Made by a program: the position numbers and the translations under genes. A DNA stretch of 64,000 nt from a virus, in the IMG/VR virus record IMGVR_UViG_3300045988_182866; one strand, given 5' to 3'. Every line of letters begins with the position of its first letter. Position 1 is the first letter of the stretch. Positions 8,086 through 31,159 of this stretch are shown here, piece by piece. The notes beneath the pieces were generated by a model. It saw only the letters and a program-made list of their open reading frames with translations. It was not told where the DNA came from and did not search any database.

Positions 8086-8145
8086 ATCAATATAAATGGA
8101 AATTCCGCCTAATATTAAATTAGGCAGAATTTCTTTATTTGTTAA

Positions 8146-9195: not shown

Positions 9196-9237
9196 GTTTT
9201 ATTTTCTTTTTATTTTTTAATGTGACTAATATTAATG

Positions 9238-9687
9238 TTATACAGAAATATTATTAGTAACTGGAATTCCAACCACTGGAATCTTGGTCTTTAACTTAAT
9301 CTTATAATCCCCCACAACTAAATCCTTTGCCTTTATCTTAGAAATAGCATTGGAAACTGTAGTGATATTATATTTTTTACCTCGTTGAGACTTCACAACA
9401 TCGATAAGATTTCGTTCAACTGCCAACTGAACTTCTGAATCACTAAGTTCCTCAGGAGCTTGAATAATTACATAAGAACGATCTTGAAATTGTTCGACTT
9501 CTGTATCATCCAAAACAATCGGCATTACAAGAAATCGATTTTTAACTCGATTTTTCTTTTCGGTCAATTCTTTCTCTTGCTCAACAAGAGCCTTTGCTTC
9601 CTCCAGAATAATTTTTTGTTTATCCTGAGGTACTTTAGAAGCCGCAAGAATCATCTCAAGGTCTTCAATATCAATTTTTAGTGCCAT
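9238..9687 (-). CDS. hypothetical protein (between PspA-like and SPFH genes)
   Basis: 149-aa ORF codirectional in the PspA...SPFH gene string. Confidence 0.35.
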   Translation of the reverse strand: MALKIDIEDLEMILAASKVPQDKQKIILEEAKALVEQEKELTEKKNRVKNRFLVMPIVLDDTEVEQFQDRSYVIIQAPEELSDSEVQLAVERNLIDVVKSQRGKKYNITTVSNAISKIKAKDLVVGDYKIKLKTKIPVVGIPVTNNISV

Positions 9688-9690
9688 AGT

Positions 9691-10257
9691 TTATATTTGA
9701 TATGTGATTAAATCCGTTGTCAATTTATTAATTGTTTCAATAAATGCTACCGGGATAGCTTCTTCAATTTTTAGTAAAAGTAATTTTAAGTTCTCATTAA
9801 CTTTAGGGCCAAATAAAATATATTGAGTATCATTGTTTAAATCGACAGAATAAGCTTTAAAATTTGCTTGATTAAAACTTATAACTGTAAATCTATCAAC
9901 AATTAAATTGTTTTTTAAAAAAGTCTCTCTGACAAAATTCTCAAGATCTCTGGAATAAATTCCTCTATGATGATCTACTTCTACTTCAATTAAAAAAGAT
10001 TGATTTATATCAATAAAGTGGTCAAATGAAGCTATTCCTAAAGTATTCCACCAAGTAAAATACCTTTCATTAAGGCCATTCTTTACTTTAATGATTTTGC
10101 TTTTATTGGCAAATGGAGAGTAAATTGTAAAAGCATGTTTAAAATCTTCAATAGTCCTGTAAGCAGGATCTTCAAAGAATTCTTCTTCAAATAAATCGAC
10201 TTGGTAAGTTTTACCATTACCAAGTCGATCAATAAGTTTGAAAACTGCTTGTTTCAT
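9691..10257 (-). CDS. hypothetical protein (between PspA-like and SPFH genes)
   Basis: 188-aa ORF; start/stop abuts the PspA-like gene (10257). Confidence 0.35.
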   Translation of the reverse strand: MKQAVFKLIDRLGNGKTYQVDLFEEEFFEDPAYRTIEDFKHAFTIYSPFANKSKIIKVKNGLNERYFTWWNTLGIASFDHFIDINQSFLIEVEVDHHRGIYSRDLENFVRETFLKNNLIVDRFTVISFNQANFKAYSVDLNNDTQYILFGPKVNENLKLLLLKIEEAIPVAFIETINKLTTDLITYQI

Positions 10258-10931
10258 TAACTCTCAGCAACACGAGCCTTCAAACGGGCAAGAGCATCTT
10301 CTTTAGATACAGATTCAATAAATTCATTCATTTCATCTTTAGTATCATTAAGAGTTCCGCTTACTTCAATTGAAGCATCGGCCTTAGAATCTTTCTTTTC
10401 AAGAATCTTATCTACATCTGCCAGCATCCCGTTAAAATCATTTTTGCCTGAAATATTCGCAATATCCTTCAAAGCAGCAAGATCTTCCTTCATAGCAGCA
10501 GATGCAGCCTTCAACTTAATCTGTTCAATTCGAGAATCATAAGAATTAAGAACAACTCTTTGATTACTAATCAACTTATCATAAGTTGCAGTTGCTTCTT
10601 CAAGAGCCTTTTCAGCCATATCAAGCTGTGCCTTAGTATTTTCATATTGAAGAGAAAATTCGGCGGCAAGACTTTCCTTGCCATTCTTAAGAGCAAGAAT
10701 GGCTCGTTCATTGAGAACTTGAACCTTTTGCTTAAGACTCTTTACATTTTTAGTCATGTTGTTTACTGTAGTCTTTACAGCAACCAATCGTTCATAAATT
10801 TCTTGCTCGGCCTTGCTCTTTTCATCTTCGAGAGACGCAATAAGAGCATCAACATTCTTACTTTCAAGTGAATTTACACCAAGATTAAGCCAGCCAAACA
10901 AAACACGTCCCAAACGTCCAATAATTCTCAT
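10257..10931 (-). CDS. pspA: PspA/IM30/Vipp1-family protein (phage shock protein A-like, bacterial ESCRT-III superfamily)
   Basis: 224 aa, all coiled coil. N-terminus MRIIGRLGRVLFGWLNLGVNSLESKNVDA parallels PspA [27 protein letters not shown]; heptad-rich body parallels PspA helices. Confidence 0.6.
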   Translation of the reverse strand: MRIIGRLGRVLFGWLNLGVNSLESKNVDALIASLEDEKSKAEQEIYERLVAVKTTVNNMTKNVKSLKQKVQVLNERAILALKNGKESLAAEFSLQYENTKAQLDMAEKALEEATATYDKLISNQRVVLNSYDSRIEQIKLKAASAAMKEDLAALKDIANISGKNDFNGMLADVDKILEKKDSKADASIEVSGTLNDTKDEMNEFIESVSKEDALARLKARVAES

Positions 10932-10937
10932 ATATTT

Positions 10938-11207
10938 TTAAATTTTAATTTTTTGATTTTCGTCCAAATATTTGTATTCGTTAAGTATTACAAATTGATT
11001 TTTAATACTTTCTTTATCCCAATTAACTCCAATTTCTTTGAATTTATTAACGCTTAATTTAATTTCAGTCTGCCCGTTTCTTATTAACCAAAACTTGGCT
11101 TTTTCATCAATTGTTATTTCTCCATCAGAAGGAATTAAAGTATGGTAATAATTTTCAAGAAATGCTTTTTGATTGCGCGTCCAAAGCCATTTAGGATAAT
11201 CAAGCAT
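10938..11207 (-). CDS. hypothetical protein
   Basis: 89-aa ORF; the conserved 16-mer upstream motif lies 27 nt before its ATG. Confidence 0.35.
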   Translation of the reverse strand: MLDYPKWLWTRNQKAFLENYYHTLIPSDGEITIDEKAKFWLIRNGQTEIKLSVNKFKEIGVNWDKESIKNQFVILNEYKYLDENQKIKI

Positions 11208-11234
11208 ATTAAAATAATAAACTTTTACTATTCT

Positions 11235-11250
11235 TTTAAAGGTGATTAAT
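11235..11250 (-). promoter_or_regulatory. conserved 16-mer TTTAAAGGTGATTAAT (minus-strand ATTAATCACCTTTAAA) 27 nt upstream of a minus-strand start codon; exact second copy at 23485..23500
   Basis: Exact 16-nt duplicate found by eye. Both copies sit exactly 27 nt upstream of a minus-strand ATG (11207 and 23457). Confidence 0.35.
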
Positions 11251-11710
11251 TTCCTGCGTATTCAACTAAAAGAACAGAAATATCATGCTTTGTTCGAAAA
11301 TTATACAAAAGATTTTCAAATTCTTTTGGTTTTACTCGTCCTATACCGCATCCCAAAAAAGGCATTACAACAGTATTAAGATGATGAGTGTTCATAACTT
11401 CAAACAAATCGCAAAGAGACAAAGAAATATCTCCCAAATTTGCTATTGAACCAGGATAAAACATGGTTGGAACATTGGCAATCATTTTCCAATTATCTTC
11501 ATCGGACAAATAAAAATAATGGCCTTTACCAATATTAACCATTTTAGAATTACAAGAGTTCTGATAACTCCAGTACATTTCAGGAAATTTATCGGCAAAA
11601 GCTTTTGCAACTCCTGCTCCCATTACTCCGATACAATTGACGGCATTGCAAATTACATCCGCCTTTGTATCAAAGATATTTCCTTTTGTTTTAATAACTT
11701 TAAGAGACAT
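11246..11710 (-). CDS. macro domain protein (ADP-ribose binding / ADP-ribosyl hydrolase fold)
   Basis: 154 aa. ICNAVNCIGVMGAGVAKAF matches the macro-domain NAAN...GGGV signature. Confidence 0.6.
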   Translation of the reverse strand: MSLKVIKTKGNIFDTKADVICNAVNCIGVMGAGVAKAFADKFPEMYWSYQNSCNSKMVNIGKGHYFYLSDEDNWKMIANVPTMFYPGSIANLGDISLSLCDLFEVMNTHHLNTVVMPFLGCGIGRVKPKEFENLLYNFRTKHDISVLLVEYAGN

Positions 11711-12015
11711 TATAACTCTGGTTCATATTCAATATTACGAAGAATGAATTCTTCCAACCATTCTTGTGAAAGAACTCCAGTGTAGGATTCAAGCTTGTCA
11801 TAGTTCTCATCACAAGCAACAAAAGTAGGAACAGATCGAATTTCGAACTTTTTAACATAAGGCATTGCCGAATTATCCTGATCGACAACAAAACTCATGA
11901 ATTCGATTTCAGGATCTTTTTTATATTTTTCAACTACACGTTCCCAGGCTGGTTTCATCATACGGCATGGACCACATGTAGAAGAAGAAAAAAGTAAAAA
12001 TTTAGTCATTATCAA
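11710..12015 (-). CDS. thioredoxin
   Basis: 101 aa. CGPC active site in FSSSTCGPCRMMKP (thioredoxin WCGPCK). Confidence 0.7.
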   Translation of the reverse strand: MIMTKFLLFSSSTCGPCRMMKPAWERVVEKYKKDPEIEFMSFVVDQDNSAMPYVKKFEIRSVPTFVACDENYDKLESYTGVLSQEWLEEFILRNIEYEPEL

Positions 12016-12226
12016 AAATAATAATAGTTAGTAGAGCGATAATTCCCCCGAAAATAATTCCAAGAATAGTAGCAGCAATAGAAATCCAAGTTGGAGAAAA
12101 TAACTGAATCCAATTCCAATTAGTAAAAGGCTCATAACCAAACCAATACCAAAATAGAATCATCATCTGAAGAAATCCTCCAACAGATAAACCATTATTA
12201 ATAGCTTTATTTGTTATATTCTTCAT
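12002..12226 (-). CDS. small membrane protein (2 predicted TM helices)
   Basis: 74 aa, strongly hydrophobic (LQMMILFWYWFGY..., IAATILGIIFGGIIALLTIIIF). Confidence 0.35.
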   Translation of the reverse strand: MKNITNKAINNGLSVGGFLQMMILFWYWFGYEPFTNWNWIQLFSPTWISIAATILGIIFGGIIALLTIIIFDND

Positions 12227-13714: not shown

Positions 13715-14857
13715 TTATTTTCTAATTGCTTTAAACTTCCCAAACCTAGGTACATTAAGATCAGGAGTTAAATCCTGATAAATGATAGTTGCCATCTTGC
13801 CTTCATAAAGTGCTCGATTTTTGAAAAATTCACGTTTAGCAGGTTCATCCCAGCCTTTACCCATACCTACTGAAAATTGAACTCCATTTTCATCTTCACA
13901 AATTATTTGTGCTGCTTGTCCGGCATGATTACCCCGTCCATCAAGAATTTGAACAATCTTATATTCGCTATCTTGAAATCGCTTATACTTTACAAGATTA
14001 GAAGAACGTCCTTCATCATAAGTCATCTCGGGATTACGAAGCATAATTCCTTCAAATCCATTTTCGATTGCATCATCTAAATAAGCTTCTACCTCTTCAA
14101 AAGAATTAACTTCAAATTGAGTAACACCCAAACTATACTTTAATGTAATATTATTAATCTGAAGGGGATAAAGATGATGACAACATTGATTAAGCTTGGT
14201 ATGCTTATTACGGTCCTTATAAGGAATCTTTGTATTTCGTTCCGCAAAATCAAAAGCATGAAATTTAATAATGCTTTTTGTTTTTGCCAGGAATTCTTCA
14301 GTAATATTCTTAGTTCTAGAAATCAAAGATGCAACTTGATTAAAATCATCTCTAAGTTCATGAGAATATAATTCTCCATCAATAATTGCATTAGGATTAG
14401 CAATGAAATAAGGTTTCAACTCCTCAAATACATGAGGGCATGAAAGAATCTCATGATGAGTCCTTGAAAACATTCCTTTAGCACAAATATAACATCTAAA
14501 GCCATCTAATTTGGCAGAAGCAAATTGAGGAAATTTAATAAATTTCTTTCTTGCTTTAAATTCTTTGGCAAGAGTTACTTCAAATTGTTTTTCAGTTGGA
14601 ATAGTATCTTGAAACCCCCTTTTCCTTTGCTTTTCAATTCGAGATTGTACTTCTAAAGCACATTGCTGTTCAGGAGTAGTAGCATTAGAACGACCTTCAT
14701 TCTTACCTTCACAATAAGTCGGTTCAGTCGTAGTAATAGCTCCCCCTACTCGACCAGAAGACATAGTATACCAATTACTGGAATCGTCATAAGATATACT
14801 CCATGTAATAGGATTGCCTTTCTTATCGAGATTAAACAATTCGAAAGATTTAATCAT
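13715..14857 (-). CDS. ATP-dependent DNA ligase
   Basis: 380 aa. Motif I KxDGxR = AKLDGFRCY; motif IV EGIMLRNP; motif V LVKYKRF. Confidence 0.85.
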   Translation of the reverse strand: MIKSFELFNLDKKGNPITWSISYDDSSNWYTMSSGRVGGAITTTEPTYCEGKNEGRSNATTPEQQCALEVQSRIEKQRKRGFQDTIPTEKQFEVTLAKEFKARKKFIKFPQFASAKLDGFRCYICAKGMFSRTHHEILSCPHVFEELKPYFIANPNAIIDGELYSHELRDDFNQVASLISRTKNITEEFLAKTKSIIKFHAFDFAERNTKIPYKDRNKHTKLNQCCHHLYPLQINNITLKYSLGVTQFEVNSFEEVEAYLDDAIENGFEGIMLRNPEMTYDEGRSSNLVKYKRFQDSEYKIVQILDGRGNHAGQAAQIICEDENGVQFSVGMGKGWDEPAKREFFKNRALYEGKMATIIYQDLTPDLNVPRFGKFKAIRK

Positions 14858-14895
14858 TATTTTTTAATAAATTATTTCTTAAAAATCGATGGTGT

Positions 14896-15219
14896 TTAAA
14901 CTATCTCCTTAAAGTCAAAAGTCTCATCATCCTCATTGATAAATGAAACAAGATGGTAAGTTTCATCAGAAAATCCGTCTGAAACTTTTACTTTAATTTC
15001 CCACCCTTCCCCGAACAATCCTCCATAAGTACCCCAGAAAATTTGAGAAGCACAAAATTTAGCAGCATCCGCCATATTTTGGATATTGTTAGCTTTAATA
15101 TCATATTTGTTAACAATCAAATAACCTTGTTTCTTAACTTTTCCGTCATCCCAAAGTTCTTTAGCAATGCAAACATAATTTGCATCCTTAAGAAGTGACA
15201 TATTAATCTTTTTACTCAT
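14896..15219 (-). CDS. hypothetical protein
   Basis: 107-aa ORF overlapping the NTase gene start by 8 nt. Confidence 0.35.
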   Translation of the reverse strand: MSKKINMSLLKDANYVCIAKELWDDGKVKKQGYLIVNKYDIKANNIQNMADAAKFCASQIFWGTYGGLFGEGWEIKVKVSDGFSDETYHLVSFINEDDETFDFKEIV

Positions 15220-16258
15220 AAAAATTTAAAATATAATTCTTAAAAAATTCCTTATCAGGTTTTTCAGGTAATTTTGACTTATTAAACAATTCTTTTAATT
15301 CTAAAGATTTTTCATTTGCCAACTTCATTAGATAATCATATTCAAAATCGCCATTTCTAATCTTTAAAAGAAATTGTCTTAAAATAGGATTACATTTAAC
15401 CGTTAATGTTCCATCTTTTAAAATCTCTCTGCAAAGACTCATAAGACGGAAAAGATGCATCATATTCTTTGTATCATAAAAGGTTTTATCAGACGTCTTT
15501 TCTACATTTGTTGCATATCTTTTTTCATTCCTTTTAGCAACCCAATCCCAGTATTCTTTATATTCTTTACAATATTTCTGATAAGCCGGAATATTAATAA
15601 TCACATAGGCTGCGGTATTTGCATTTTTTGGAACCGATGTAATATTAATGTTCATGTCTAAAATAGGTCCGGCTTTACAAGGATGATTATAAAGTACATA
15701 AACATTTTCAGCATGATTCATTTTACAAAGAGATAAATTAGTCTCTTTAATACCACAGCATTCCAACCAGTCTCGATAAGGAATAGAATGTTGATAGCAC
15801 AACACCCAGCTAAAATCTTTTAACGTTTTTCTTTCTTTAGGAAAAGGATTAGCTGACTTTTTATTAACGTTTTTGGCCTTTAAAATTTGAGATTCAGCAT
15901 AAGCTCCAAAAGTATAAAAACATTTCTTGGAAAGAACTTTTTCAATTAGTGGATCAAATCGTTTATCCCTAATTTTAACATGTTCAGGATCAGTAGTAAA
16001 CAAAACTTCAAGAGCCGAAGGAGTATTCTTTCTTAGTTGTTCAAGGAAGAATCCAATCTCGGTATAGATAGTATCATTATTATTCTCCTGGATTACCTTT
16101 TCATATTCACCAACTAATATATCTTTAACAGGATGAGCAAAAACACCTCTAATATCAACATCCGAATCTTTAGTATTCAACCCATAAGAAATACTTCCCG
16201 CAATAACGCTCAATAATACTTCTTTACCCTTCAGAGGTCCTTCTCCACTTAAACACAT
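15212..16258 (-). CDS. Pol-beta-superfamily nucleotidyltransferase-fold protein
   Basis: 348 aa. The N-terminal GS-x9-DxD motif (LSVIAGSISYGLNTKDSDVDIRGVF) is the minimal NTase signature. Substrate unknown. Confidence 0.5.
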   Translation of the reverse strand: MCLSGEGPLKGKEVLLSVIAGSISYGLNTKDSDVDIRGVFAHPVKDILVGEYEKVIQENNNDTIYTEIGFFLEQLRKNTPSALEVLFTTDPEHVKIRDKRFDPLIEKVLSKKCFYTFGAYAESQILKAKNVNKKSANPFPKERKTLKDFSWVLCYQHSIPYRDWLECCGIKETNLSLCKMNHAENVYVLYNHPCKAGPILDMNINITSVPKNANTAAYVIINIPAYQKYCKEYKEYWDWVAKRNEKRYATNVEKTSDKTFYDTKNMMHLFRLMSLCREILKDGTLTVKCNPILRQFLLKIRNGDFEYDYLMKLANEKSLELKELFNKSKLPEKPDKEFFKNYILNFYE

Positions 16259-16314
16259 GAATTCATTTTATAAATTTCCTTAAAACTTGAAGGTGTTTAA
16301 TGGTAAAAATAAAA

Positions 16315-16349
16315 GAGAGAAATGCTTGAAAAATAAAGCATTTCTCTCA
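16315..16349 (-). terminator. hairpin terminator (13-bp perfect stem gagagaaatgctt / aagcatttctctc, 9-nt loop)
   Basis: Inverted repeat read directly; T-run on the minus strand; 3' of minus-strand gene 16377..16817. Confidence 0.45.
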
Positions 16350-16376
16350 AGTTATATAGCTTTTTCTAAGCTTCTT

Positions 16377-16817
16377 TTACGCTTTAGGGACGACTTTTAC
16401 CGGACGTCCGGTCTTAATCGCCAATTGAATGCCAGAGTCAATAGCAGACTTGATAGATTCTAAAGCCATCATCAATTTTTCATTATCATGAATCTTTGCC
16501 ATATTTTCGTCATATACATTCATGATTTCAGAAACAACCTTATCTACAATTTGCTTCGAGAACAATTTAGACAAAGCTTCTGTCAGCTTGGCCTGAAGTT
16601 CATCCCGGGTAACTTGATCGTTCTTAATAATAGTTCCAATAATGTCAGAAGCCTTTTGGAAAGCCGCCAATGTTTCAGCATCCTTTCGAATAGACGAGGA
16701 CACAACACATGCTCCGGAACAAACCATCAAATCTTCTTTTCCTTGCTTATCTAAAAGCATATTTTGAGAACAGGAACACATAATTCCCCCTACCAGCAAT
16801 GATAAAATAATTTTCAT
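16377..16817 (-). CDS. putative secreted protein / lipoprotein
   Basis: 146 aa. N-terminal signal-like MKIILSLLVGGIMCSCSQ, with Cys after the hydrophobic core. Confidence 0.35.
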   Translation of the reverse strand: MKIILSLLVGGIMCSCSQNMLLDKQGKEDLMVCSGACVVSSSIRKDAETLAAFQKASDIIGTIIKNDQVTRDELQAKLTEALSKLFSKQIVDKVVSEIMNVYDENMAKIHDNEKLMMALESIKSAIDSGIQLAIKTGRPVKVVPKA

Positions 16818-16827
16818 ATAATTTTAA

Positions 16828-17664
16828 TTAATTTACTTCTTCAAGAACTTCAAATCTATTTGTGCGAATCTTTCCATCCTTGAAAGAGATATAATGAAGA
16901 TCTTTAAAAAATATTCTTACTTTGATAATTTTTTCAGAACAATATACTTTGGCATTTATATAATCCCAAACACTTAATCCAAAAGAATTATCTACATCAT
17001 CCTTGTCGCATATATCCGTATATGTGTTGCCTACTTCATATGTTATACGTGATGTCATAGTAGAAGTATTATCTTTCTTAATTCCCTTATAAGCTATAAA
17101 AGAATGTTCATCGTAATCTTCATACTTAATACCTGATGTTTTTTCCGCAAATCTTAGTGTTTCCTTCTTATTTTCTTCAGGCTCATGAGCTTTATTATAT
17201 TCTCTCCAGAGCGTTTCTGCCAAAAACTCGGGCTTGTTGTCATAAGCTTGAAGCAATTCTAAAATAGTCAACAAAGTTTCTTTATCTAAAGTTTCATCTT
17301 GAACAATAATAGCTTTGGCAATTTTTAAAGCAATGTTAAATTGTGCAATAGCCGTTAAACCACTGTTGTTAATCTTTGCAAAAAACTTATAAAGAAAAGG
17401 AACACAAAATAATTGATAGTTTACATCAGATTTATAATAAGATTTATAAAACTTTTCTATAAACTTTGTTCTAAATGCTTCATTTTCAAATCTTGGATTT
17501 ATATGATAAAGAATAATACTTTCAAATAATCCATATTTGTCAAGCAAAGAAAAAATCTGATTGTCATTTAAACAATCAGATTTTTTAGAAGCACAAAATA
17601 ATCTTGCAAAATATTCGTTAGATGTACAATCTTGAAATGTTTTATTTTCAAAAAGGAAATCCAT
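16828..17664 (-). CDS. hypothetical protein
   Basis: 278-aa ORF. Confidence 0.35.
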   Translation of the reverse strand: MDFLFENKTFQDCTSNEYFARLFCASKKSDCLNDNQIFSLLDKYGLFESIILYHINPRFENEAFRTKFIEKFYKSYYKSDVNYQLFCVPFLYKFFAKINNSGLTAIAQFNIALKIAKAIIVQDETLDKETLLTILELLQAYDNKPEFLAETLWREYNKAHEPEENKKETLRFAEKTSGIKYEDYDEHSFIAYKGIKKDNTSTMTSRITYEVGNTYTDICDKDDVDNSFGLSVWDYINAKVYCSEKIIKVRIFFKDLHYISFKDGKIRTNRFEVLEEVN

Positions 17665-17670
17665 ATATTA

Positions 17671-18357
17671 TTAACGAAGAGTAGAATCGATAATATCTTT
17701 TGTTCTTGGAGGAAGCCATCCTTCTGGCTTAATTACATCAAAAGTACTTCCGCGCTTTCCGACATTATCTTTAGTTGCACGAATCTTTTGCATGTTCCTG
17801 GCCTGAACATCATTCCACAAAGCCTGGGCAGGCATGTTCATGAGATTTAACAAGCCCGACGCAACATAAATCAGATCGGTTAAACCATCTGAAATTTCAT
17901 AAATATTACCTTCCTTGTGCGCTTTATCAATTTCTGCAAGTTCTTCATAAAGATGGCCGATCTTTACTTTCATTTCCTCTTCAGGGAGAATACCAAATTG
18001 ATCCTTTCTCCAAAGACCATATTTTTGCTGAAAAGCCATTGTATCATCAAAAATATTAGTACTCCAAGTATTCATCAAAGAATGATATTCTTGTGCGTCA
18101 AGATCTTCATCATTAATATATTCAAAATAACCAGTTAACATTACTTCCACTAAAGTAGATGGAATCCATGTACGAATAGTCATTTGCTTATTTTCTTCAA
18201 TATTTTTAATGGGATCTCCTTCCAGCATAGGAGTCTTTGCTCCATTGCCCCATAGATAAAATTGAAGGTCGCCATCTTCAGTAACAAAATTACTGCTCTT
18301 CCTGTTTACCACATATCGATTGTGGTCCTGCTCGCAATGAAAAATTAGATATTTCAT
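17671..18357 (-). CDS. MazG-like all-alpha NTP pyrophosphohydrolase domain protein (candidate dCTPase/dUTPase-type nucleotide sanitiser)
   Basis: 228 aa. C-terminal EELAEIDKAH...EISDGLTDLIYVASGLLNL fits the MazG/HisE EExxE...E..D..DLL motif. Confidence 0.5.
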   Translation of the reverse strand: MKYLIFHCEQDHNRYVVNRKSSNFVTEDGDLQFYLWGNGAKTPMLEGDPIKNIEENKQMTIRTWIPSTLVEVMLTGYFEYINDEDLDAQEYHSLMNTWSTNIFDDTMAFQQKYGLWRKDQFGILPEEEMKVKIGHLYEELAEIDKAHKEGNIYEISDGLTDLIYVASGLLNLMNMPAQALWNDVQARNMQKIRATKDNVGKRGSTFDVIKPEGWLPPRTKDIIDSTLR

Positions 18358-18363
18358 ATAAAA

Positions 18364-18870
18364 TTAAAGTGTTTTAAGATAATCATATCGAACTACCTTA
18401 TGTTGAAGGTCAGGGTGACATGACTTAAAAGTTAGATAAATGTCCTGATACTTGTCATAAATTTTTGACATAACATCAACATTAGAAATATATTCTTCTT
18501 TAACCTTCATGCAATCGACATAGTTTTTAAGGTAAATCCCCTTATCCATAGGAAGACAAAAAATAATAAGGTCAAAAGCATTTAATAGGTCATTAATAAA
18601 ATCTTTACCTCCATCCATGTCCGGACAAAAATGAATACGCGGTTCATTTCGAACTACTGATCCATAAACATATTCTGAAATAAGATGACGATCAATAATT
18701 ACATTATCATGTTCTTTTAAGAACTCAAAAGACTGCTTAATTTGATCTGCATATTCAAAGTCATCCTCATTGTAAGAATAGTGAATATATTCGCATTTTA
18801 AAGCTTCTTGCAAAACTTTTGCCAAATGTGTTTTCCCGCCTGAATCGGGACCATCCAAATAAATTTTCAT
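18364..18870 (-). CDS. P-loop deoxynucleotide (dNMP) kinase-like protein
   Basis: 168 aa. N-terminal Walker A: IYLDGPDSGGKTHLAKVL. Confidence 0.5.
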   Translation of the reverse strand: MKIYLDGPDSGGKTHLAKVLQEALKCEYIHYSYNEDDFEYADQIKQSFEFLKEHDNVIIDRHLISEYVYGSVVRNEPRIHFCPDMDGGKDFINDLLNAFDLIIFCLPMDKGIYLKNYVDCMKVKEEYISNVDVMSKIYDKYQDIYLTFKSCHPDLQHKVVRYDYLKTL

Positions 18871-18871
18871 A

Positions 18872-19138
18872 TTAATCTTGAGAGGTAAAATTATAACTTA
18901 TATTATTTTCTAATAGAATCTTAACAAATATTTTTATAATTCCATCAACTTCTTTTCGTTCTCTTGAAGAGAAAATAATAGAATTTTTAAAAATAACAAG
19001 ATGGTCTGTTTCATTATCATCTTTCTTAAAGATAATAGAATTATCATCTTCATGTTCAAGATAATATAAATTTTGATCTTCTGTTAAAAGAAAAATCTCT
19101 TTTTCATCTTGTTCAAAATTAAAGATTTGATATTTCAT
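18872..19138 (-). CDS. hypothetical protein
   Basis: 88-aa ORF between the kinase and the ThyA-family gene. Confidence 0.3.
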   Translation of the reverse strand: MKYQIFNFEQDEKEIFLLTEDQNLYYLEHEDDNSIIFKKDDNETDHLVIFKNSIIFSSRERKEVDGIIKIFVKILLENNISYNFTSQD

Positions 19139-20064
19139 ACAGCTACAGGCATATTAATAATTTTAGCTGGCTTATAATTTTCAATAGAAAACCAATCTAA
19201 TTGAAAATCTTCTAATTTTTCTACATAATCAGGGCCGGAATAAATTAAATTTGGAGGTACATTAATTGTTGAAGAAATCATTTCTCTTACTCCCTCCATT
19301 TGATTTACATAAATGTGACTATCTCCAAATAACCCATAAACAGTTCCCACTTCATGATTTGTCATTTTAGACATCATAAAAAGAAGCAAAGAATAAAGGC
19401 AAATATCAAAAGGAACTCCAACAGGCATATCACAAGATCTTTGAATCCATCGAAGATGCAAGCGCCGTTTACCATTTTCCAAAGATTCAGAATAAAACTC
19501 TCCGCCCCAATGGCAAGGGGGAAGTGCCATATCATTTAGTTCTCCCGGATTCCACATTGAAAATACTAATCGTCTATCATCAGGATTAGTTCTGAGAGTA
19601 TTAATGATATTTTGAATTTGATTAATAGTCGCCCGTTCTAAAATATCATTTTTAGAAACATTAAAATAACCGCAATCCCATTCCATTAATTGCTTGCCAT
19701 ATACAGGACCCAAATCACCTTTTTCATCAGCCCATTTATCCCAGTAATGTACATTTTCATTTTTAAGATACATTACATTATTCCTATCAGTATTAGGAAT
19801 AGGATTTTGAGCTTGAAGAATGCCAAGAATCCAGAATAATTCTACTAATGCCCCTTTAAAAAAGATTTTTCGCATTGTAATTAATGGAAAATAACCTTTG
19901 GTCAGTAATTTTCCAGAATTCCAGCTAGTATTAAAAATACTTTTAGTATCAATACCCGTTCTATTAGATTTAAGAACCCCCTTCTCAAGGATCTCCAGCA
20001 AAATCCTGCGATAACAACTCTCAGGCTTGTGTAAGAAGCCTATTTCCTTTATATCTCCACTCAT
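19135..20064 (-). CDS. thymidylate synthase (ThyA) family enzyme with Asp at the dUMP-specificity Asn position: predicted deoxycytidylate 5-methyltransferase / 5-hydroxymethyltransferase
   Basis: 309 aa. Strong ThyA similarity (WDKWADEKGDLGPVYGKQ, MALPPCHWG active-site Cys, QRSCDMPVGVPFDICLYSLL). In E. coli ThyA the last segment is [20 protein letters not shown]; Asn177 (PFN) is replaced by Asp (PFD), as in T4 gp42 dCMP hydroxymethylase and engineered N177D dCMP methylases. Confidence 0.75.
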   Translation of the reverse strand: MSGDIKEIGFLHKPESCYRRILLEILEKGVLKSNRTGIDTKSIFNTSWNSGKLLTKGYFPLITMRKIFFKGALVELFWILGILQAQNPIPNTDRNNVMYLKNENVHYWDKWADEKGDLGPVYGKQLMEWDCGYFNVSKNDILERATINQIQNIINTLRTNPDDRRLVFSMWNPGELNDMALPPCHWGGEFYSESLENGKRRLHLRWIQRSCDMPVGVPFDICLYSLLLFMMSKMTNHEVGTVYGLFGDSHIYVNQMEGVREMISSTINVPPNLIYSGPDYVEKLEDFQLDWFSIENYKPAKIINMPVAV

Positions 20065-20087
20065 TTCTTTTTATCTTATCAGTATTC

Positions 20088-20636
20088 TCAATTATCCATG
20101 GTGTTTTGCCATCTTATAAATTTCTCAATAGCGAGCCTGTAATCACCTACTGTATGAATTTCTAATTGAGCTGGAATAAATTTCCAAAGCAGATAAAGAC
20201 TGCTAATATCTGAAAAATAGGTATCATGATAAATGTCCATCAATTCTTCAATATAAAAAATAGAACGGTAGACAACTTTGGAATATTTTAAAAGCGTATC
20301 ATAAAGCATACTTCCGCCAATGCAAACCACCTCTTCTTCGGAATCTTTAAATTTATCTATAAAATCGCATATATTAATTTTAATAACATTATCAGGCAGA
20401 TTAAGAGGCAAATCCCGGGAAGTAATAATAAAATGATTTAAGCGATTTTTTAAAGGTTTAAAATTCAAACTTTCAAAAGTGTTATAACCCATCACAACAC
20501 TTTTTCCTTCGGTAACATTTTTAAAATGTTCCATATCTCTTCTAGCTATTTCTTTATATTTTTGACCTTTCCAGGGAAGAGAATTTTTATGTCCAATAGA
20601 ACCATTGGGAAGCATTGCAAAAATTGAAGAAATCAT
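20088..20636 (-). CDS. frd: dihydrofolate reductase
   Basis: 182 aa. MISSIFAMLPNGSIGHKNSLPWK...VVMGYNTFESL aligns with E. coli FolA [22 protein letters not shown]...VIMGRHTWESI. Confidence 0.85.
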   Translation of the reverse strand: MISSIFAMLPNGSIGHKNSLPWKGQKYKEIARRDMEHFKNVTEGKSVVMGYNTFESLNFKPLKNRLNHFIITSRDLPLNLPDNVIKINICDFIDKFKDSEEEVVCIGGSMLYDTLLKYSKVVYRSIFYIEELMDIYHDTYFSDISSLYLLWKFIPAQLEIHTVGDYRLAIEKFIRWQNTMDN

Positions 20637-20704
20637 TGTTTTTTAATATTTTATTACTTTTTTAGGCTCAGCTATAATCTTAAATAAACTTATATTTTAA
20701 AAAG

Positions 20705-21346
20705 ATGAATAGCTATAGTTACGATGAGGAGAAAGATAAATGGGAGGCAGAATTAGTTGCAACTAAGGACCGTATAGCTAGACGAATTTATTCAACAAAA
20801 GATTATTACTATTGTTGCTGGAAAATGGCAAGGCATGGATTATTAATTCTTGATTACCGGGGGTTAATTATAGATGTTAACCCGTATTTTTGTGAAAAAA
20901 TTGGATATTCTCGAGAAGAATTATTGGGAAAAAATATTAATGATTTTTGTGTTAAAGCTGAAGATCTTCATGCTTCTGATTCTATTAATATTTTAACTTT
21001 ACTTCAATCGATTAATCAACAAAGTACAAATCAATGCGAATTAAAAACTAAAGAAACTAAATTATTTCGTGTAAGATGGGTCGCAACCAGAATTCCAGCA
21101 TCATTATCTAGTCCATTCTCACATAGTTTAGTATGTGTATACTTTTTAAGTGAAACTAATTATTCTAAAATTATTGATGAGATTAATAAAATTAAAAAGA
21201 AAGAATCGAATATCCTTTGGAAGATACTCGATTCTCTTTGGGCAAAATGCTTAATTTTTTTAATTATTATTCTTACAGCTATTGGTGGAAGTTTACCAGA
21301 TATTGTCTCAAAGATAATATCTTTATTTGCAAATTCTCCACTTTAA
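20705..21346 (+). CDS. PAS-domain protein with C-terminal transmembrane anchor
   Basis: 213 aa. PAS-like core LILDYRGLIIDVNPYFCEKIGYSREELLGKNINDF; C-terminal hydrophobic helix CLIFLIIILTAIGGSL. Confidence 0.4.
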   Translation: MNSYSYDEEKDKWEAELVATKDRIARRIYSTKDYYYCCWKMARHGLLILDYRGLIIDVNPYFCEKIGYSREELLGKNINDFCVKAEDLHASDSINILTLLQSINQQSTNQCELKTKETKLFRVRWVATRIPASLSSPFSHSLVCVYFLSETNYSKIIDEINKIKKKESNILWKILDSLWAKCLIFLIIILTAIGGSLPDIVSKIISLFANSPL

Positions 21347-21520
21347 TAAAGTAAGCTCTTCATATAAAAATCAGAACATTCAATATCAAAATCTTTCTGA
21401 GTTTCAATATTTTCCGCTGGATAAAAAGTTGTTACAATTGTTAAACTATTCTTTTGATAAACGGAAATTGATCCGTTATCATTCAAAGAAAATTTAAATT
21501 TATCAATGGTACATTCCATA

Positions 21521-21873: not shown

Positions 21874-22593
21874 TCATTGAGAGGTATTTATATTTTTCTT
21901 ATAATGATTAAGCATCAGAATAATCTCATGCTTCATAAAATTTGTTGGAATAACTTCCCAATTTCCGGTATTCATATCTAACCAGAAAATGAGCAGTCCT
22001 TTGCATTTCTTCTTAGTCAGAATTTCATTCATAAATCCATAAATTCCTAACTGAAGAGCATATGTATTAAATTCACATTCAGATAAATGATTTAATGGAG
22101 CTTTCATCCATTTACCATAATCTGAACCAAATCTAAATTTTTTATTTGTTTTAAAATCGCCAATGATGAATGTACCATCTTCTAATTCAAATAGAAGGTC
22201 ACCAGTACCGGCAATTTTAAAATCATGATTATATAACAACTTTTCAGAATATATTTCTGAAATATTTGGAATATATTTTTCTACTTTTAATTGAAATTTT
22301 TCAATGATCTTCTTATACAAAGGATCAACTTCTCCATACTTTACATAATTTTCAAGAGCAGCATGAAAATCAGTACCTCTATCACATGCAAAATTTTTAT
22401 TATCTTCCCATTCTTTAAGAATTTCTTCTTGACTTACTCCTCTTTTCTTTGCAACCCATTTAGAAATATTTTCTGCATCAAACTTTTCCTTATATCGCCC
22501 TAATAATTTAGAAACTGAGCAATATTCTTCATTTGTTTCAATATTAATATATTGATGAGTATCTTCTAAAAATTTAATCGGGATATAGCTCAT
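21874..22593 (-). CDS. PD-(D/E)xK nuclease of the Cas4/RecB/lambda-exonuclease (YqaJ) type
   Basis: 239 aa. Motif II GTGDLLFE; motif III IGDFKT; QxxxY motif TYALQLGIYGF. Confidence 0.5.
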   Translation of the reverse strand: MSYIPIKFLEDTHQYINIETNEEYCSVSKLLGRYKEKFDAENISKWVAKKRGVSQEEILKEWEDNKNFACDRGTDFHAALENYVKYGEVDPLYKKIIEKFQLKVEKYIPNISEIYSEKLLYNHDFKIAGTGDLLFELEDGTFIIGDFKTNKKFRFGSDYGKWMKAPLNHLSECEFNTYALQLGIYGFMNEILTKKKCKGLLIFWLDMNTGNWEVIPTNFMKHEIILMLNHYKKNINTSQ

Positions 22594-23110
22594 TTAATTC
22601 TTTAATTTTCTTTTCAATCATGTAAATTAAATTTCTAATTAATCTTGAACTTTTCCAAGGAAGATTAGAATATTCAAATATATTTTTCTTTTTAATATTT
22701 TCTAAACTTATGAAGGTGTCACACATATAATCTGTCTCATCAGGAGAAAATAGATTAATAATTTCTCCTGAAAGGTAACCTATCGTTATAGTCGGATGAA
22801 AATCATCAAATGTATATTGAGATGATGTTATCAACTGTAATATTTCATTTACTGTGAGAGGATATTGAGTATTATCATCTTTTAACAAAAACATTAAAGA
22901 TAAAAATTGTATTTTACCTCTAATAAATTGTTTCCAAATTTCATATGGATTATCTGTATTAAAACATTTTTTAAGAATGGAAGTATTGATGAAAAATTTA
23001 TTATAAACATTCCATTTAGATCCACATTTTTTAGAAAAGATTTCGTTTTGAACATAGTAATCCAATATATCTTGGAACTTTTCTACTGTATTTTTAAATT
23101 TTTCGTCCAT
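22574..23110 (-). CDS. hypothetical protein
   Basis: 178-aa ORF. Confidence 0.3.
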   Translation of the reverse strand: MDEKFKNTVEKFQDILDYYVQNEIFSKKCGSKWNVYNKFFINTSILKKCFNTDNPYEIWKQFIRGKIQFLSLMFLLKDDNTQYPLTVNEILQLITSSQYTFDDFHPTITIGYLSGEIINLFSPDETDYMCDTFISLENIKKKNIFEYSNLPWKSSRLIRNLIYMIEKKIKELNELYPD

Positions 23111-24660: not shown

Positions 24661-26190
24661 ATGAACCTTTCTTTATTGACAGTATTATGTCATGGCAAAA
24701 ATAATAGCCAACTTAAAGAATTATTAAAAAATAATAAAATATTAAATTTTATTAATACTTTTATTAAAGATAAACCTTATTATGAAACACCCTTTAGATT
24801 TTTAAAATTGTTGAGTAAAAATGCAACATTACCTGCCTGTATTATATGTGGAAATATTATTTCTTATAGTATTTGGAATAGACGTAATAATGCTAAATTT
24901 TGTTCTAAAACTTGCAAATATTCTAAAGAAGGTAAAGAAAATACTAGAAAAAATATTGAAAAAACATTAATTGAAAAATATAAGGTTAAAAATATTTTAC
25001 AACATAAAAAGTTTAAAGAAAAACAAGAATTAACTTGTTTAGCAAAATACGGAACTAAATTTTATTCAAAAACTTCAGAATGTAAAGAAAAAGTTAAGAA
25101 GACGTCATTAGAAAAATTTGGTACAAATAATGTGATGTTCAATAAAAAGGTTTTAAAAAATATAAAAAATAATAATTTATTAAAATTTGGGGTTGAATGG
25201 CCTTTATCAGATAAAACTATTCATAAAAAAACTATGAATAGTCTTGTTAAAAAACATTTAGAAAAGCTTAAAAAGTTTAATTTAACTTTGTTAGATGAAT
25301 ATCAATCCACAAAAGAATACTATAATTTTAAATGTGCTACATGTGGTAATACATTTAAAGATCATTTAAAAAATGGTAGAATTCCTATATGCAAACATTG
25401 CTTTCCTTCTAATACTTCTATTGGGGAAAAAGAATTATCAAACTTTATTAAACAATTTTCTTCTAATATTAGCTTAAATGATAGAACATTAATAAATCCT
25501 TTAGAATTAGATATTGTTATTCCAGAAAAACATTTAGCAATAGAATTTAATGGGCTATATTGGCATTCTGAAGAACATGGTAAAAATGAAAATTATCATA
25601 TTAATAAATCATTATTATGTAAATCTAAAAACTTTAATTTAATTCATATATTTGAAGATGAATGGCTTTTTCAAAAAAATATAATAAAAGGTATTATAAA
25701 AGATTATTTTAATAGCAAAAAAATAAAAACAAATTTTATTACATTTAAAAAAATCGATAATAAATTAGCTAAAAAATTTAATGAAAAATATAATATTCTT
25801 GGACATATTACTACAAAAAATAATTTTGGACTTTTTTATAAAAATAGATTAATACATGTATTATCTGTTGGAAAACCAAGATTTAATAAAATTTACAAAT
25901 ATGAAATTTATCGATTATCCTCAACATTTAATTTTAAAATTGAAAATTATTTTAAAGTTTTAATTGATAATTTACCTTTATCAATTAAAGAATCATTAAT
26001 ATTTTATGAAAATAAACGTTTTCCTATTATTAATAAAACATTATTAGATAATTTGATATTTTTATCAAATTCTAAGCCAAGCTATTTTTTTGTCAAAAAT
26101 AAAAATAGATATTCAAAATATAATAAAATAAATAGATTTGATTATAAAATTTGGGATTGCGGATCAACACTTTATCAGGTTAAATATTAA
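24661..26190 (+). CDS. divergent member of the homing-endonuclease-like family (zinc ribbons + central Vsr-like nuclease domain + ~170-aa C-terminal extension; paralog 3 of 5)
   Basis: 509 aa. Contains ELDIVIPEKHLAIEFNGLYWH (Vsr-like core) and CxxC/HC ribbons (IPICKHCFP, CATCGNTF); weaker repeats than the other paralogs. Confidence 0.45.
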   Translation: MNLSLLTVLCHGKNNSQLKELLKNNKILNFINTFIKDKPYYETPFRFLKLLSKNATLPACIICGNIISYSIWNRRNNAKFCSKTCKYSKEGKENTRKNIEKTLIEKYKVKNILQHKKFKEKQELTCLAKYGTKFYSKTSECKEKVKKTSLEKFGTNNVMFNKKVLKNIKNNNLLKFGVEWPLSDKTIHKKTMNSLVKKHLEKLKKFNLTLLDEYQSTKEYYNFKCATCGNTFKDHLKNGRIPICKHCFPSNTSIGEKELSNFIKQFSSNISLNDRTLINPLELDIVIPEKHLAIEFNGLYWHSEEHGKNENYHINKSLLCKSKNFNLIHIFEDEWLFQKNIIKGIIKDYFNSKKIKTNFITFKKIDNKLAKKFNEKYNILGHITTKNNFGLFYKNRLIHVLSVGKPRFNKIYKYEIYRLSSTFNFKIENYFKVLIDNLPLSIKESLIFYENKRFPIINKTLLDNLIFLSNSKPSYFFVKNKNRYSKYNKINRFDYKIWDCGSTLYQVKY

Positions 26191-29082: not shown

Positions 29083-31020
29083 TTAGAACCAGTTAGGTAA
29101 ATCTCTGACACCAAATTGGTCAAAGCTATTCGGAAGGGTAATCTGGTTTCGATATTCATCCAAACTAAGAGTTTCTCCAAAATCTAAAAGATTCATTTGC
29201 TTTTTTTGTTTAAAATCATTACTTGATGTAATAGTATTAATTTGGCCTTTACTAAATCCGGCCATTACTCCGATAAATGGAGATTCCATATCCAACTCTT
29301 TATAAAGAGTATTAGCCCAATCAGTCCTGGGATCCATTTCCCATCGTTTTTTAATAACAAGAGGAATATTATTGACGTCTTTTTTATCAACAATAAGATA
29401 ATTGTTAATTACTTTCTTATAAAGAGCAAAAAGACTCCAACATAAAGCCAAAACATGGTCATCATGGAATCCTGGTTGAGCACACCATCGAATATTATTA
29501 CTTTGATTACGAATGCAAGTAAATGTTCTTAATTCTTCAATAGTTTTTTTATCATAAATTTTGACAACTCGACGGTCATGAATATAATATTTCATATTAT
29601 GAACGCCTTCGCTTTTTGTCACTCTATTGGTAATAATACCCGGGAGAACTTTTCGCCCTGGGGTTTGCGGCCCGTATCCTGAACCGAAATTAATAAATCT
29701 CGGATAATTATTTTCATAGAACAGCTTTTCACAAACATGGGCCCCAGGGCCGTTTCGTTCAACTGACATAATAGGAGAATACCACTGTTTTGCAATTTCC
29801 AAGACTTTAGCCGCAAAAGTAGTAATATCCATTGTATTAGTTGAATATCTGGCAGCCTGCTCAATATTCAAGGGGTCAGTAATATCAAAAATTTGAATAA
29901 CTGAATAGTCTTGTCCTACGCCTTCAGAAGTATCAACTCCCATGGTATAGATTTTTTCGGAATCAGGTTTTTTCCAAATATAATAATTTCCATCTTCTAA
30001 TATGTTTAATGGTTCAATTAATTCTTTTGTGAACTTATCAAACATGTTAGGATCAAATGGAGAGCCCGAATTATTAAGAAACCTACATTCATATTCTTGA
30101 GTAAATGTATCATAGCTCATTGTGCTCAATTCAGCATCTTTCCAAGCTTCTGTTCTGCCAGGGAAATCAAACCAAAAAGCTTTCTCTAACGCAAAATCGT
30201 TTCTTCCTTCTTCCGCCTTAGATACCAATTCATGAAATTTATTACCTACGCCCTTAGGAGTAGATGCCACAATAAGCTTTGCATTTTTATTATTATTAAA
30301 ACGAGAAGCAAGAGTAGGAGTAACAGCAGCCCAGAAAGCTTCAGCATCTTTAGGAGGAATAATAGCAAACTCGTCAAGAAGAAGAACATCAATAGCTAAA
30401 CCACGAATAGCATCAGGTGAAGTAGCTGATGTTAAGATACGAGAACCATTCGCTAATGTAAAGAATGTTTTATTAAATTCAAGAACACCGCCCTTAATCC
30501 AGTTTTCCATCATTTGGAAAGCCAGACGAACACGCATAAAAATTTCGGTTGCTGTTGACTGTTTGTTAGCGACAATACATACAGTTTGGTCAGGATGAAA
30601 TACTGCAACCCATGTAGCAACGATAGTCATTAAGGTCGTATTATGGGAAAGAATACCGTTGGCATAATATAAATGATTTGAATCTTTAGCTAATTCAAAA
30701 TCATACATATTTTCCCATTCAGATGTTGCAATTACATCAACAACTTTATCTCCTCCATAATTAGTTGCAATATCTTCGCCAAGTGAATCTTTAGCAAAGA
30801 CTTGCTCATCTTTCATAGTAATTAAAATATGATTATCGGCACATTCGAGAATATTACCTGTCTTGAATTTAATAATATATTTTTGATAAGGGACAGTTTT
30901 ATTAATAGTTTTAATATCTGTCCATTCCTGATTTGAAGAAATTTGCCAATTTGAAGCATCAAGAACTTCTTCAAATTTTCTAAAAATTGTTTTAGATAAA
31001 TCTTTAAATTTTTTAAGCAT
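29083..31020 (-). CDS. large terminase subunit (gp17-like), C-terminal portion: intein C-part (blocks B, F, G) fused to the TerL C-extein (Walker B, nuclease domain)
   Basis: 645 aa. After ...NGILSHN the sequence TTLMTIVATWVAVF...ATSPDAIRGLAIDVLLLDEFA...GVDTSEGVGQDYSVIQIFDITD...FHDDHVLALCWSLFAL aligns with T4 gp17 (GKTTVVAIFLAHFV, ASSPDAVRG...[44 protein letters not shown]). The first ~127 aa carry intein blocks B (GNILECADNHILIT) and F/G (MYDFELAKDSNHLYYANGILSHN). Confidence 0.85.
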   Translation of the reverse strand: MLKKFKDLSKTIFRKFEEVLDASNWQISSNQEWTDIKTINKTVPYQKYIIKFKTGNILECADNHILITMKDEQVFAKDSLGEDIATNYGGDKVVDVIATSEWENMYDFELAKDSNHLYYANGILSHNTTLMTIVATWVAVFHPDQTVCIVANKQSTATEIFMRVRLAFQMMENWIKGGVLEFNKTFFTLANGSRILTSATSPDAIRGLAIDVLLLDEFAIIPPKDAEAFWAAVTPTLASRFNNNKNAKLIVASTPKGVGNKFHELVSKAEEGRNDFALEKAFWFDFPGRTEAWKDAELSTMSYDTFTQEYECRFLNNSGSPFDPNMFDKFTKELIEPLNILEDGNYYIWKKPDSEKIYTMGVDTSEGVGQDYSVIQIFDITDPLNIEQAARYSTNTMDITTFAAKVLEIAKQWYSPIMSVERNGPGAHVCEKLFYENNYPRFINFGSGYGPQTPGRKVLPGIITNRVTKSEGVHNMKYYIHDRRVVKIYDKKTIEELRTFTCIRNQSNNIRWCAQPGFHDDHVLALCWSLFALYKKVINNYLIVDKKDVNNIPLVIKKRWEMDPRTDWANTLYKELDMESPFIGVMAGFSKGQINTITSSNDFKQKKQMNLLDFGETLSLDEYRNQITLPNSFDQFGVRDLPNWF

Positions 31021-31159
31021 TTTTAAAGGTAATTTTGTTAATAAACTTTTTAAGCTTATTTTGAATTTTAATTAATTTAAAAAAGATTCCAACGTTAATC
31101 TTAAAGGATAAATTTAAAGGCTTATAACGCACGCAAATTGGCACACTTGGAGAAAGACA
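30640..31159 (-). mobile_element. mini-intein in the TerL P-loop (between GK and TT), encoded across two overlapping ORFs in different frames; candidate atypical split intein
   Basis: N-extein ends SRQWGK, then Cys (CLSPSVPI..., block A). The C-part ends ...ANGILSHN, then Thr-Thr. Joining the exteins gives SRQWGKTT, the gp17 Walker A. The two ORFs overlap by 8 nt (ATGCTTAA) and their frames differ. Confidence 0.7.

Follow-up and report, generated by a model that had tools for sequence, protein, structure and literature searches.

A compact gene cluster on the minus strand (positions 17671-20636) of the IMG/VR virus record IMGVR_UViG_3300045988_182866 fairly probably encodes a pre-replicative pathway of the type found in phage Xp12, which would supply 5-methyl-deoxycytidine triphosphate (5-methyl-dCTP) in place of deoxycytidine triphosphate (dCTP). 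The record of 64,000 nucleotides (nt) is referred to in full as the window, and coordinates are window positions unless another locus is named. The cluster encodes, in this order, a dihydrofolate reductase (DHFR), a ThyA-family enzyme, a protein of 88 amino acids (aa), a P-loop deoxynucleoside monophosphate (dNMP) kinase and a MazG-like (PRA-PH) nucleoside triphosphate (NTP) pyrophosphatase. Packing is tight: according to the open reading frame (ORF) coordinates, 23 nt separate the DHFR gene from the ThyA-family gene, whose stop overlaps the start of the 88-aa ORF by 4 nt, and gaps of 1 nt and 6 nt precede the kinase gene and the MazG-like gene. An earlier reading of this DNA (the original prediction) had named four genes, all of which were present on this strand in the ORF list with family matches, and had overlooked the 88-aa ORF between the ThyA-family gene and the kinase gene.

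In the proposed pathway the MazG-like pyrophosphatase would first hydrolyse dCTP to deoxycytidine monophosphate (dCMP) and pyrophosphate, which would remove the canonical competitor and feed the next enzyme. The ThyA-family enzyme would then methylate C5 of dCMP with 5,10-methylene-tetrahydrofolate by ordinary thymidylate synthase chemistry, including hydride transfer, to give 5-methyl-dCMP and dihydrofolate. The fold and catalytic residues for this step are in place, and its substrate and product are predicted from residues. DHFR, which clearly belongs to its family, would be coupled to this reaction by recycling dihydrofolate to tetrahydrofolate. The P-loop kinase would convert 5-methyl-dCMP to the diphosphate 5-methyl-dCDP, and a host nucleoside diphosphate kinase would form the triphosphate. 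The phage polymerase would finally insert 5-methylcytosine (5mC) in place of cytosine, with protection from cytosine-reading nucleases.

The ThyA-family enzyme and its residue 177

The ThyA-family protein matched PF00303 over profile positions 3-266 of 266, and its best solved-structure matches were all thymidylate synthases. It was 36% identical to Escherichia coli ThyA over 292 residues and scored 188 bits against the thymidylate synthase equivalog TIGR03284 (cut-off 108). Residues R21, E58, W80, Y94, R126/127, L143, C146, H147, Q165, R166, S167, C168, D169, H207 and Y209 were kept relative to E. coli ThyA. The ThyA C-terminus PVAV was also retained, and this segment was intact across the whole clade of the enzyme. 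Among the checked positions two were changed, Gln151 to Glu and Asn177 to Asp (motif GVPFDI). In ThyA it is Asn177 that reads the uracil base of deoxyuridine monophosphate (dUMP). The alignment thus bore out the original prediction of a ThyA-family enzyme with an Asp.

Substitution of Asp for Asn177 turns the specificity of ThyA from dUMP to dCMP, and Asn177Asp mutants methylate dCMP (Liu & Santi 1992; Hardy & Nalivaika 1992, both as cited in PMC8670742). In a published residue code N177D specifies dCMP, L143D/E hydroxymethylation and D169N a 5-hydroxy-dCMP synthase (PMC13326640). The window enzyme reads L143/D169/D177, the methyl combination of this code. A dCMP hydroxymethylase of the T4 gp42 type has an acidic residue 143 and no C-terminal closing segment; here L143 and PVAV are kept. 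The D169N change that marks 5-hydroxy-dCMP synthases of the RB69 gp48 or DLP3 gp80 type was not found. Together with the intact ThyA C-terminus, these residues therefore predict a dCMP C5-methyltransferase (5-methyl-dCMP synthase) and not a hydroxymethylase or hydroxylase, which departs from the hydroxymethyl model of T4 with which the cluster had been compared.

The C-terminal residues of thymidylate synthases close the active site for hydride transfer. Their retention in the window enzyme is consistent with reductive methylation, in which dihydrofolate is formed. The DHFR gene directly upstream fits a dihydrofolate-producing reaction as well, because hydroxymethylation would not need DHFR. 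A DHFR gene was also directly upstream of the ThyA-family gene in the related loci L005 and L012. The DHFR assignment itself was secure (PF00186, 84.3 bits against a cut-off of 25).

We compared the enzyme with its 120 best database relatives (cluster representatives). The combination L143/H147/E151/D169/D177 was common to 55 of them, down to about 40% identity, and nine differed from it only in having Asn177; bacterial enzymes of the canonical type read L/H/Q/D/N. Representatives P0067 (Asp177) and P0068 (Asn177) were 71% identical, and the existence of such close sisters indicates that both states are maintained. Asp and Asn forms interleaved within one phage clade in a neighbour-joining tree (no bootstrap), and this clade lay beside canonical ThyA, far from the enzymes of phages Xp12 and PaMx74 and from T4 gp42. 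Common descent with the Xp12/PaMx74 enzymes was not indicated, as the window enzyme was 21% identical to that of Xp12 and lay in this separate clade. These findings suggest that the methylase was derived independently from ThyA proper, and they agree with the earlier description of the cluster as built from more ThyA-like parts than those of T4. The best matches in isolated phages were about 39% identical.

Other Asp177 ThyA-like lineages, with L143, H147, Q151, D169 and D177, were seen at the IMG/VR loci L025, L053, L077, L084, L086, L087, L093 and L094. An Asn-to-Asp switch has apparently occurred several times, and the accessory genes differ from case to case.

Partner enzymes, gene order and precedents

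The MazG-like protein matched PF01503 (34.6 bits, cut-off 21.3) and a PHROG annotated as nucleotide pyrophosphohydrolase (phrog_671). Its AlphaFold2 (AF2) model (pLDDT 91.7) showed a beta-rich N-terminal domain (about aa 1-82), which varied among homologs and gave no significant fold match in Foldseek, followed by an all-alpha domain (about aa 96-228). The best sequence and fold match of the latter was DR2231 of Deinococcus radiodurans (sequence E 2e-6; Foldseek E 1e-5, probability 1.00, TM score 0.70-0.79 normalised to target). Residues E138, E139, E142, D157 and D161 were invariant in 34 homologs. The family model, the helical fold and the acidic metal-binding motifs, which DR2231 shares, place the protein in the MazG-like/PRA-PH group. 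DR2231 differs in that it is bacterial, about 21% identical and without the extra N-terminal domain, and base specificity is not transferable at such a distance. The original prediction had likened the protein to the dCTPase gp56 of T4; the all-alpha, MazG-like NTP pyrophosphatase was confirmed, whereas no similarity to gp56 was detectable anywhere in the window (tblastn, best E 2.4). We found no direct biochemistry on PRA-PH substrate specificity in phages in the literature. We infer hydrolysis of dCTP to dCMP and pyrophosphate from gene context, namely the linkage to Asp177 enzymes and the homologs in Xp12 and PaMx74.

The kinase scored just below the PF02223 cut-off (24.6 bits against 27) and far below that of TIGR00041 (24 bits against 83). 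It matched phrog_761, annotated as thymidylate kinase, and has the Walker A motif GPDSGGKT. Among solved structures, SPbeta YorR was closest (E 0.0016). Homologs held the same position in L005 and L012. Elsewhere in phages, homologs were annotated as thymidylate kinase and often adjoined a DHFR or NTP pyrophosphatase gene. In Stenotrophomonas phage AXL3 a homolog lies between an NTP pyrophosphatase and an Asp177 enzyme, so that the same trio of genes is present. We considered AXL3 as a model for 5mC and rejected it, since the thymidylate synthase homolog of this phage has D143 and T147, as hydroxymethylases do.

The gene order of the cluster was kept in L005 and L012 although their ThyA-family proteins were just 68% and 61% identical to that of the window, which argues that the arrangement is not due to chance. 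An Asp177 enzyme followed by a PRA-PH gene within about 1.7 kb was found in six separate lineages of the clade: the window phage, L005, L012, L011 (49% identity in the ThyA-family protein), L013/14 (44%) and L018 (45%). The last was the one clade member in our IMG/VR scan, in which the other 79 loci served as background. The Asn177 sister lineages L015 and L016 had no PRA-PH gene within 8 kb. In L017 an Asn177 enzyme was followed by a paralog with the gp42 code (D143/T147/D177) and then by a PRA-PH gene. Thus PRA-PH tracks the presence of a dCMP-modifying enzyme of any lineage, which is the behaviour expected of a pyrophosphatase that removes dCTP and supplies dCMP.

The phages of L011, L013, L016, L017 and L018 are related to one another, with helicases 45-84% identical, and their thymidylate synthase locus lies just downstream of the helicase gene. 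In these phages, and in L014, the locus after the Helicase_C_2 gene (about 8000-11000 or 10000-12100 of each) occurred in three states: an Asp177 enzyme with PRA-PH; an Asn177 enzyme with a gp42-like Asp177 paralog and PRA-PH; and an Asn177 enzyme alone beside an N6/N4 methyltransferase. The three states look like a natural series of 5mC, 5-hydroxymethylcytosine (5hmC) and unmodified cytosine. A wider scenario is possible, and we put it forward tentatively, as less likely true than false. In it the ThyA lineage of large A+T-rich metagenomic phages would have switched repeatedly between Asn177 and Asp177, and relatives would alternate between C, 5mC and 5hmC genomes through one locus, with the pyrophosphatase gained or lost each time. 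The window phage would then have a fully 5mC genome and no dedicated thymidylate synthase of its own, its enzyme being annotated as a plain thymidylate synthase.

The closest precedent for the cluster is the 5-methyl-deoxycytidine cassette of Xanthomonas phage Xp12 and Pseudomonas phage PaMx74. Both phages replace all cytosine with 5mC, and the Xp12 enzyme makes 5-methyl-dCMP (bioRxiv 10.1101/2024.12.05.627091). In both cassettes the hydrolase comes first, followed by the thymidylate synthase homolog, a dCMP-family deaminase and DHFR. The PRA-PH domain of the window protein was 41% identical to the Xp12 'HAD hydrolase' (E 9e-17) and 35% to PaMx74 gp53 (E 1.5e-11). Besides this homologous domain, the systems share a thymidylate synthase-family enzyme with Asp177 and D169, DHFR in the cassette and tight co-directional packing. 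There are also clear differences. The Xp12 enzyme, an experimentally verified 5-methyl-dCMP synthase, reads N143, D169 and D177 with P147, so that the position-143 rule is imperfect; the window methylase keeps L143, H147, Q165 and the C-terminus, and is ThyA proper. The window cassette has a dedicated kinase, and neither it nor the window has the deaminase that adjoins the thymidylate synthase homolog in Xp12 and PaMx74. The window pyrophosphatase carries its beta-rich domain at the N-terminus, whereas the Xp12 hydrolase has a C-terminal extension. Finally, the host genome is a T4-like myovirus of about 200 kb, in contrast to the siphoviruses of about 60 kb that carry the known cassettes.

The original prediction had recognised in the cluster the logic by which T4 makes 5hmC, with DHFR as an addition. 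In T4, dCTP is removed (gp56 dCTPase/dUTPase), dCMP is modified by an Asp177 paralog (gp42) and the product is re-phosphorylated (gp1 dNMP kinase). On comparative evidence, a cassette of pyrophosphatase, Asp177 ThyA paralog and kinase acting on dCMP does hold, and the window phage is itself T4-like, with rIIA/rIIB and gp18-like sheath genes. Unlike the window enzyme, T4 gp42 has D143 and T147 and ends early, without the ThyA C-terminus. The predicted product here is methyl and not hydroxymethyl, no glucosyltransferase was found, and the genes are clustered with DHFR, whereas those of T4 are dispersed. The DHFR gene is real but not a novelty, as the Xp12 and PaMx74 cassettes contain one.

Metavirome data provide a third comparison. 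PF00303 with Asp177, PF01503 and PF00383 co-occur on cytosine-modified metavirome contigs (MetaGPA, PMC8670742), and several Asp177 metavirome thymidylate synthase homologs make 5-methyl-dCMP in vivo (bioRxiv 10.1101/2024.12.05.627091). The window cassette resembles these gene sets in having the same Pfam domains together and Asp177. It differs from them in keeping His147 and in having no deaminase within 3 kb.

Competing readings of the cluster

Several observations weigh against a pathway to 5-methyl-dCTP. The activities of the Asp177 ThyA clade are predictions from residues, and H147, which the window enzyme keeps, is a position found by MetaGPA to differ on modified contigs. DR2231, the closest solved relative of the pyrophosphatase, is dUTP-specific. 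It was crystallised with dUMP and dUMPNPP, and these ligands call for caution on a dCTPase role. Outside the clade, eight IMG/VR loci of other Asp177 ThyA lineages had no PRA-PH gene within 8 kb, and locus L038 paired a short PRA-PH protein with a normal Asn177 enzyme. Furthermore, no deaminase, ThyX or second ThyA was found in the window (tblastn, with a motif search for the deaminase), and no deaminase or other nucleotide-metabolism gene in the 10 kb beyond rIIB. These searches covered the window and those 10 kb of a genome of about 200 kb, and they revealed no evident source of deoxythymidine triphosphate (dTTP) for a phage of 69% A+T.

The cluster could instead be an ordinary dTTP-supply operon of an A+T-rich phage, in which the MazG-like protein would be a dUTPase, the ThyA-like enzyme still mainly a thymidylate synthase and the kinase a thymidylate kinase, with DHFR recycling folate. 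The families of all four enzymes match the canonical ThyA/FolA/Tmk/Dut pathway (PF00303, PF00186, PF02223/TIGR00041-like in fold, and PRA-PH), and the ThyA-like protein clears the equivalog cut-off by 188 bits to 108. The dUTP analogues bound by DR2231 would suit such an operon, as would L038, where DHFR, an Asn177 enzyme and PRA-PH occur together, and the 31% G+C of a window with no other thymidylate synthase. We nevertheless consider this reading unlikely. Asp177 is the established dCMP switch according to the mutant studies as cited above, and it is present in 55 representatives even though close Asn177 sisters exist; Glu151 also departs from the canonical enzyme. The pyrophosphatase is MazG-like and not a trimeric Dut. 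In the clade itself, PRA-PH genes come after the Asp177 enzymes and are missing where the only enzyme has Asn177, and the 5mC phages Xp12 and PaMx74 have PRA-PH homologs in their cassettes.

A second alternative, which we regard as improbable, retains the dCMP methylase and changes the fate of its product. Here 5-methyl-dCMP would be mainly an intermediate to thymidylate through a deaminase encoded elsewhere, and cytosine would be replaced in part or not replaced. Alternatively, the Asp177 enzyme would use dCMP as well as dUMP. The linked deaminase of Xp12-type phages converts 5-methyl-dCTP to dTTP, so that no separate thymidylate synthase is needed (bioRxiv 10.1101/2024.12.05.627091). The relative L005 has a PF00383 deaminase gene 9 kb downstream of its cassette, and the window showed no canonical thymidylate synthase. 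Neither the window nor the next 10 kb, however, contains a deaminase. Homologs of the L005 deaminase were found on contigs of relatives and no close one on the approximately 200-kb contigs of the window phage, which is no more than suggestive. In Xp12, moreover, the same route coexists with full replacement of cytosine, and it would thus be more an addition to the proposed pathway than an alternative.

Formation of another C5 adduct (5-hydroxymethyl- or 5-hydroxy-dCMP) with decoration as in T4 or RB69 is very improbable: Asp177 is shared with T4 gp42 and the 5-hydroxy-dCMP synthases, a strain variant has a Glyco_transf_25 gene near its cassette and the N143 of Xp12 makes the position-143 rule inexact, but residue 143 is non-acidic, residue 169 is not Asn, the ThyA C-terminus is intact in the whole clade, DHFR is adjacent and, in the window strain, the scanned ORFs (at least 100 aa, up to position 46046) included neither a recognisable glycosyltransferase nor a TET/JBP-type gene.

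Supply of 5-methyl-dCTP is thus the reading that we prefer. Its logic would not surprise a specialist, as the hydroxymethyl pathway of T4, the methyl pathway of Xp12/PaMx74 and the metavirome association of Asp177 thymidylate synthases with PRA-PH were known already. What is new is the phage lineage, the predicted methylase from ThyA proper, the dedicated kinase in the cassette and the lack of a linked deaminase. Of most interest among the by-products are the locus with three states and the way in which close relatives seem to have switched between Asn177 and Asp177. If the reading is true, a very widespread phage of about 200 kb carries 5mC for every cytosine, which bears on escape from restriction and CRISPR, on methylation-aware metagenome sequencing and on host prediction. 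The enzyme would also be a natural counterpart of the classic ThyA N177D mutant, and Asn sisters up to 71% identical would offer a clean system for re-targeting by one residue. Because the protein passes the NCBI thymidylate synthase equivalog cut-off, such genes are probably mis-annotated as ordinary thyA.

The window phage and the surroundings of the cluster

The window comes from a T4-like phage of about 200 kb that is widespread, very abundant and uncultured. The window (G+C about 31%) encodes rIIA/rIIB, GroEL, an ATP-dependent DNA ligase, terminase, a gp18-like tail sheath and tube proteins. Metagenomic contigs, the longest of 202,781 bp (ENA ERZ28569031, scaffold_103), encode exact copies of its ThyA-family protein. 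Near-identical MazG-like and rIIB proteins occurred in many assemblies, with rIIB indexed in 155 blocks of the assembly collection. A search of 50,697 phage records gave no near-identical DNA. The Asn177 enzyme P0118, encoded on a 199-kb contig, was considered as a second thymidylate synthase of this phage and rejected; with 41% G+C and a tetranucleotide correlation of 0.66 with the window, its locus belongs to another phage.

Genes for other cytosine modifications were also sought. Homologs of T4 gp42, of T4 beta-glucosyltransferase and of the glycosyltransferase of the strain variant L001 were not found in the window. No TET/JBP-type or glycosyltransferase family was found among the ORFs covered as given above (PHROGs, and selected ORFs against Pfam). 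The L001 gene (L001:6737-7414) encodes a Glyco_transf_25 protein of 225 aa about 3 kb from the cassette, and the window equivalent (22574-23110) is an unrelated 178-aa ORF; the L001 enzyme could act either on DNA or on a cell-surface sugar. One DNA methyltransferase gene was found (33794-34402), just below the Pfam cut-off for the Eco57I methylase family. Methylases of this family act on N6 of adenine and not on C5 of cytosine.

Two more co-directional ORFs follow the MazG-like gene with gaps of 6 and 10 nt, and a terminator-like hairpin lies beyond them (Table 1). In the interval 16000-21500 we found seven terminator-like sites, compared with 1.9 expected from shuffled sequences. The transcription unit probably spans from about 20700 to about 16315, with the hairpin as its 3' end, and the 278-aa ORF is probably in the same transcript as the cassette.

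Table 1. Features of the putative transcription unit, listed from its first gene to its probable 3' end.
Feature	Coordinates	Strand	Evidence
Dihydrofolate reductase, first gene of the unit	20088..20636	-	PF00186 E 9.8e-24; phrog_316 E 2e-31
ThyA-lineage enzyme with Asp177, predicted dCMP C5-methyltransferase	19135..20064	-	PF00303 E 1.2e-75
88-aa ORF, no family match	18872..19138	-	ORF list; present in strain variants L001-L004
P-loop dNMP kinase, thymidylate-kinase/dNK fold	18364..18870	-	PF02223 24.6 bits; phrog_761 E 5e-12
Two-domain MazG-like/PRA-PH NTP pyrophosphatase	17671..18357	-	PF01503 E 2.7e-8; phrog_671 E 1e-20
278-aa co-directional ORF, helical repeats and C-terminal module of about 100 aa	16828..17664	-	Homologs in L005, L012
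146-aa co-directional ORF, hydrophobic lipoprotein-like N-terminus, sequence begins MKIILSLLVGGIMCSC	16377..16817	-	ORF list; L001-L005
Terminator-like hairpin, 13-bp stem then T-run	16315..16348	-	Terminator-like site scan

The three small or downstream ORFs gave little in family searches. The 88-aa ORF had no match in Pfam, PHROG or NCBIfam. Its N-terminus resembles that of the MazG-like protein (MKYQIFNFEQD and MKYLIFHCEQD; BLASTP E 0.003, a weak match from one pairwise comparison), and the product of the ORF may be a paralog of the small beta-rich domain at that N-terminus. The 278-aa ORF matched no family in Pfam, PHROG or NCBIfam, and a search of the full library gave nothing informative. 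L005 (E 5e-51) and L012 have homologs of it in the same place, after the MazG-like gene. Its C-terminal module is shared by more than 100 protein clusters, again at the C-terminus, and one of the members showed a faint match to DUF7666. The 146-aa ORF had sub-threshold Pfam matches only.

On the other side of the cluster, a PAS-domain gene with a C-terminal hydrophobic helix (20705-21346, plus strand) diverges from the DHFR gene, and its position was kept in L005 and L012. The protein could be a sensor or regulator beside the nucleotide cassette. The minus-strand block that contains the cassette also holds genes for GroEL, a Band_7/SPFH protein, PspA/IM30, a Macro domain protein and an RlaP-type nucleotidyltransferase beside the ATP-dependent DNA ligase (4811-6415, 8146-9195, 10257-10931, 11246-11710, 13715-16258). 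Ligase domains have been associated with cytosine-modified contigs (MetaGPA). An 88-nt tRNA-Asp called by ARAGORN on the minus strand (11453-11540) lies inside the Macro-domain ORF and is probably a false positive.

Five ORFs of the HNH/DUF723 homing-endonuclease type were present in the 64 kb (3830-4735, 6412-7503, 24661-26190, 35717-36814 and 40559-41908). Their presence differed among strain variants, and the copy at 24661-26190 was absent in L001. Three consecutive minus-strand ORFs of 199, 151 and 645 aa (29083-32071) all matched terminase large-subunit PHROGs; they may represent a split terminase gene, or one preceded by related fragments.

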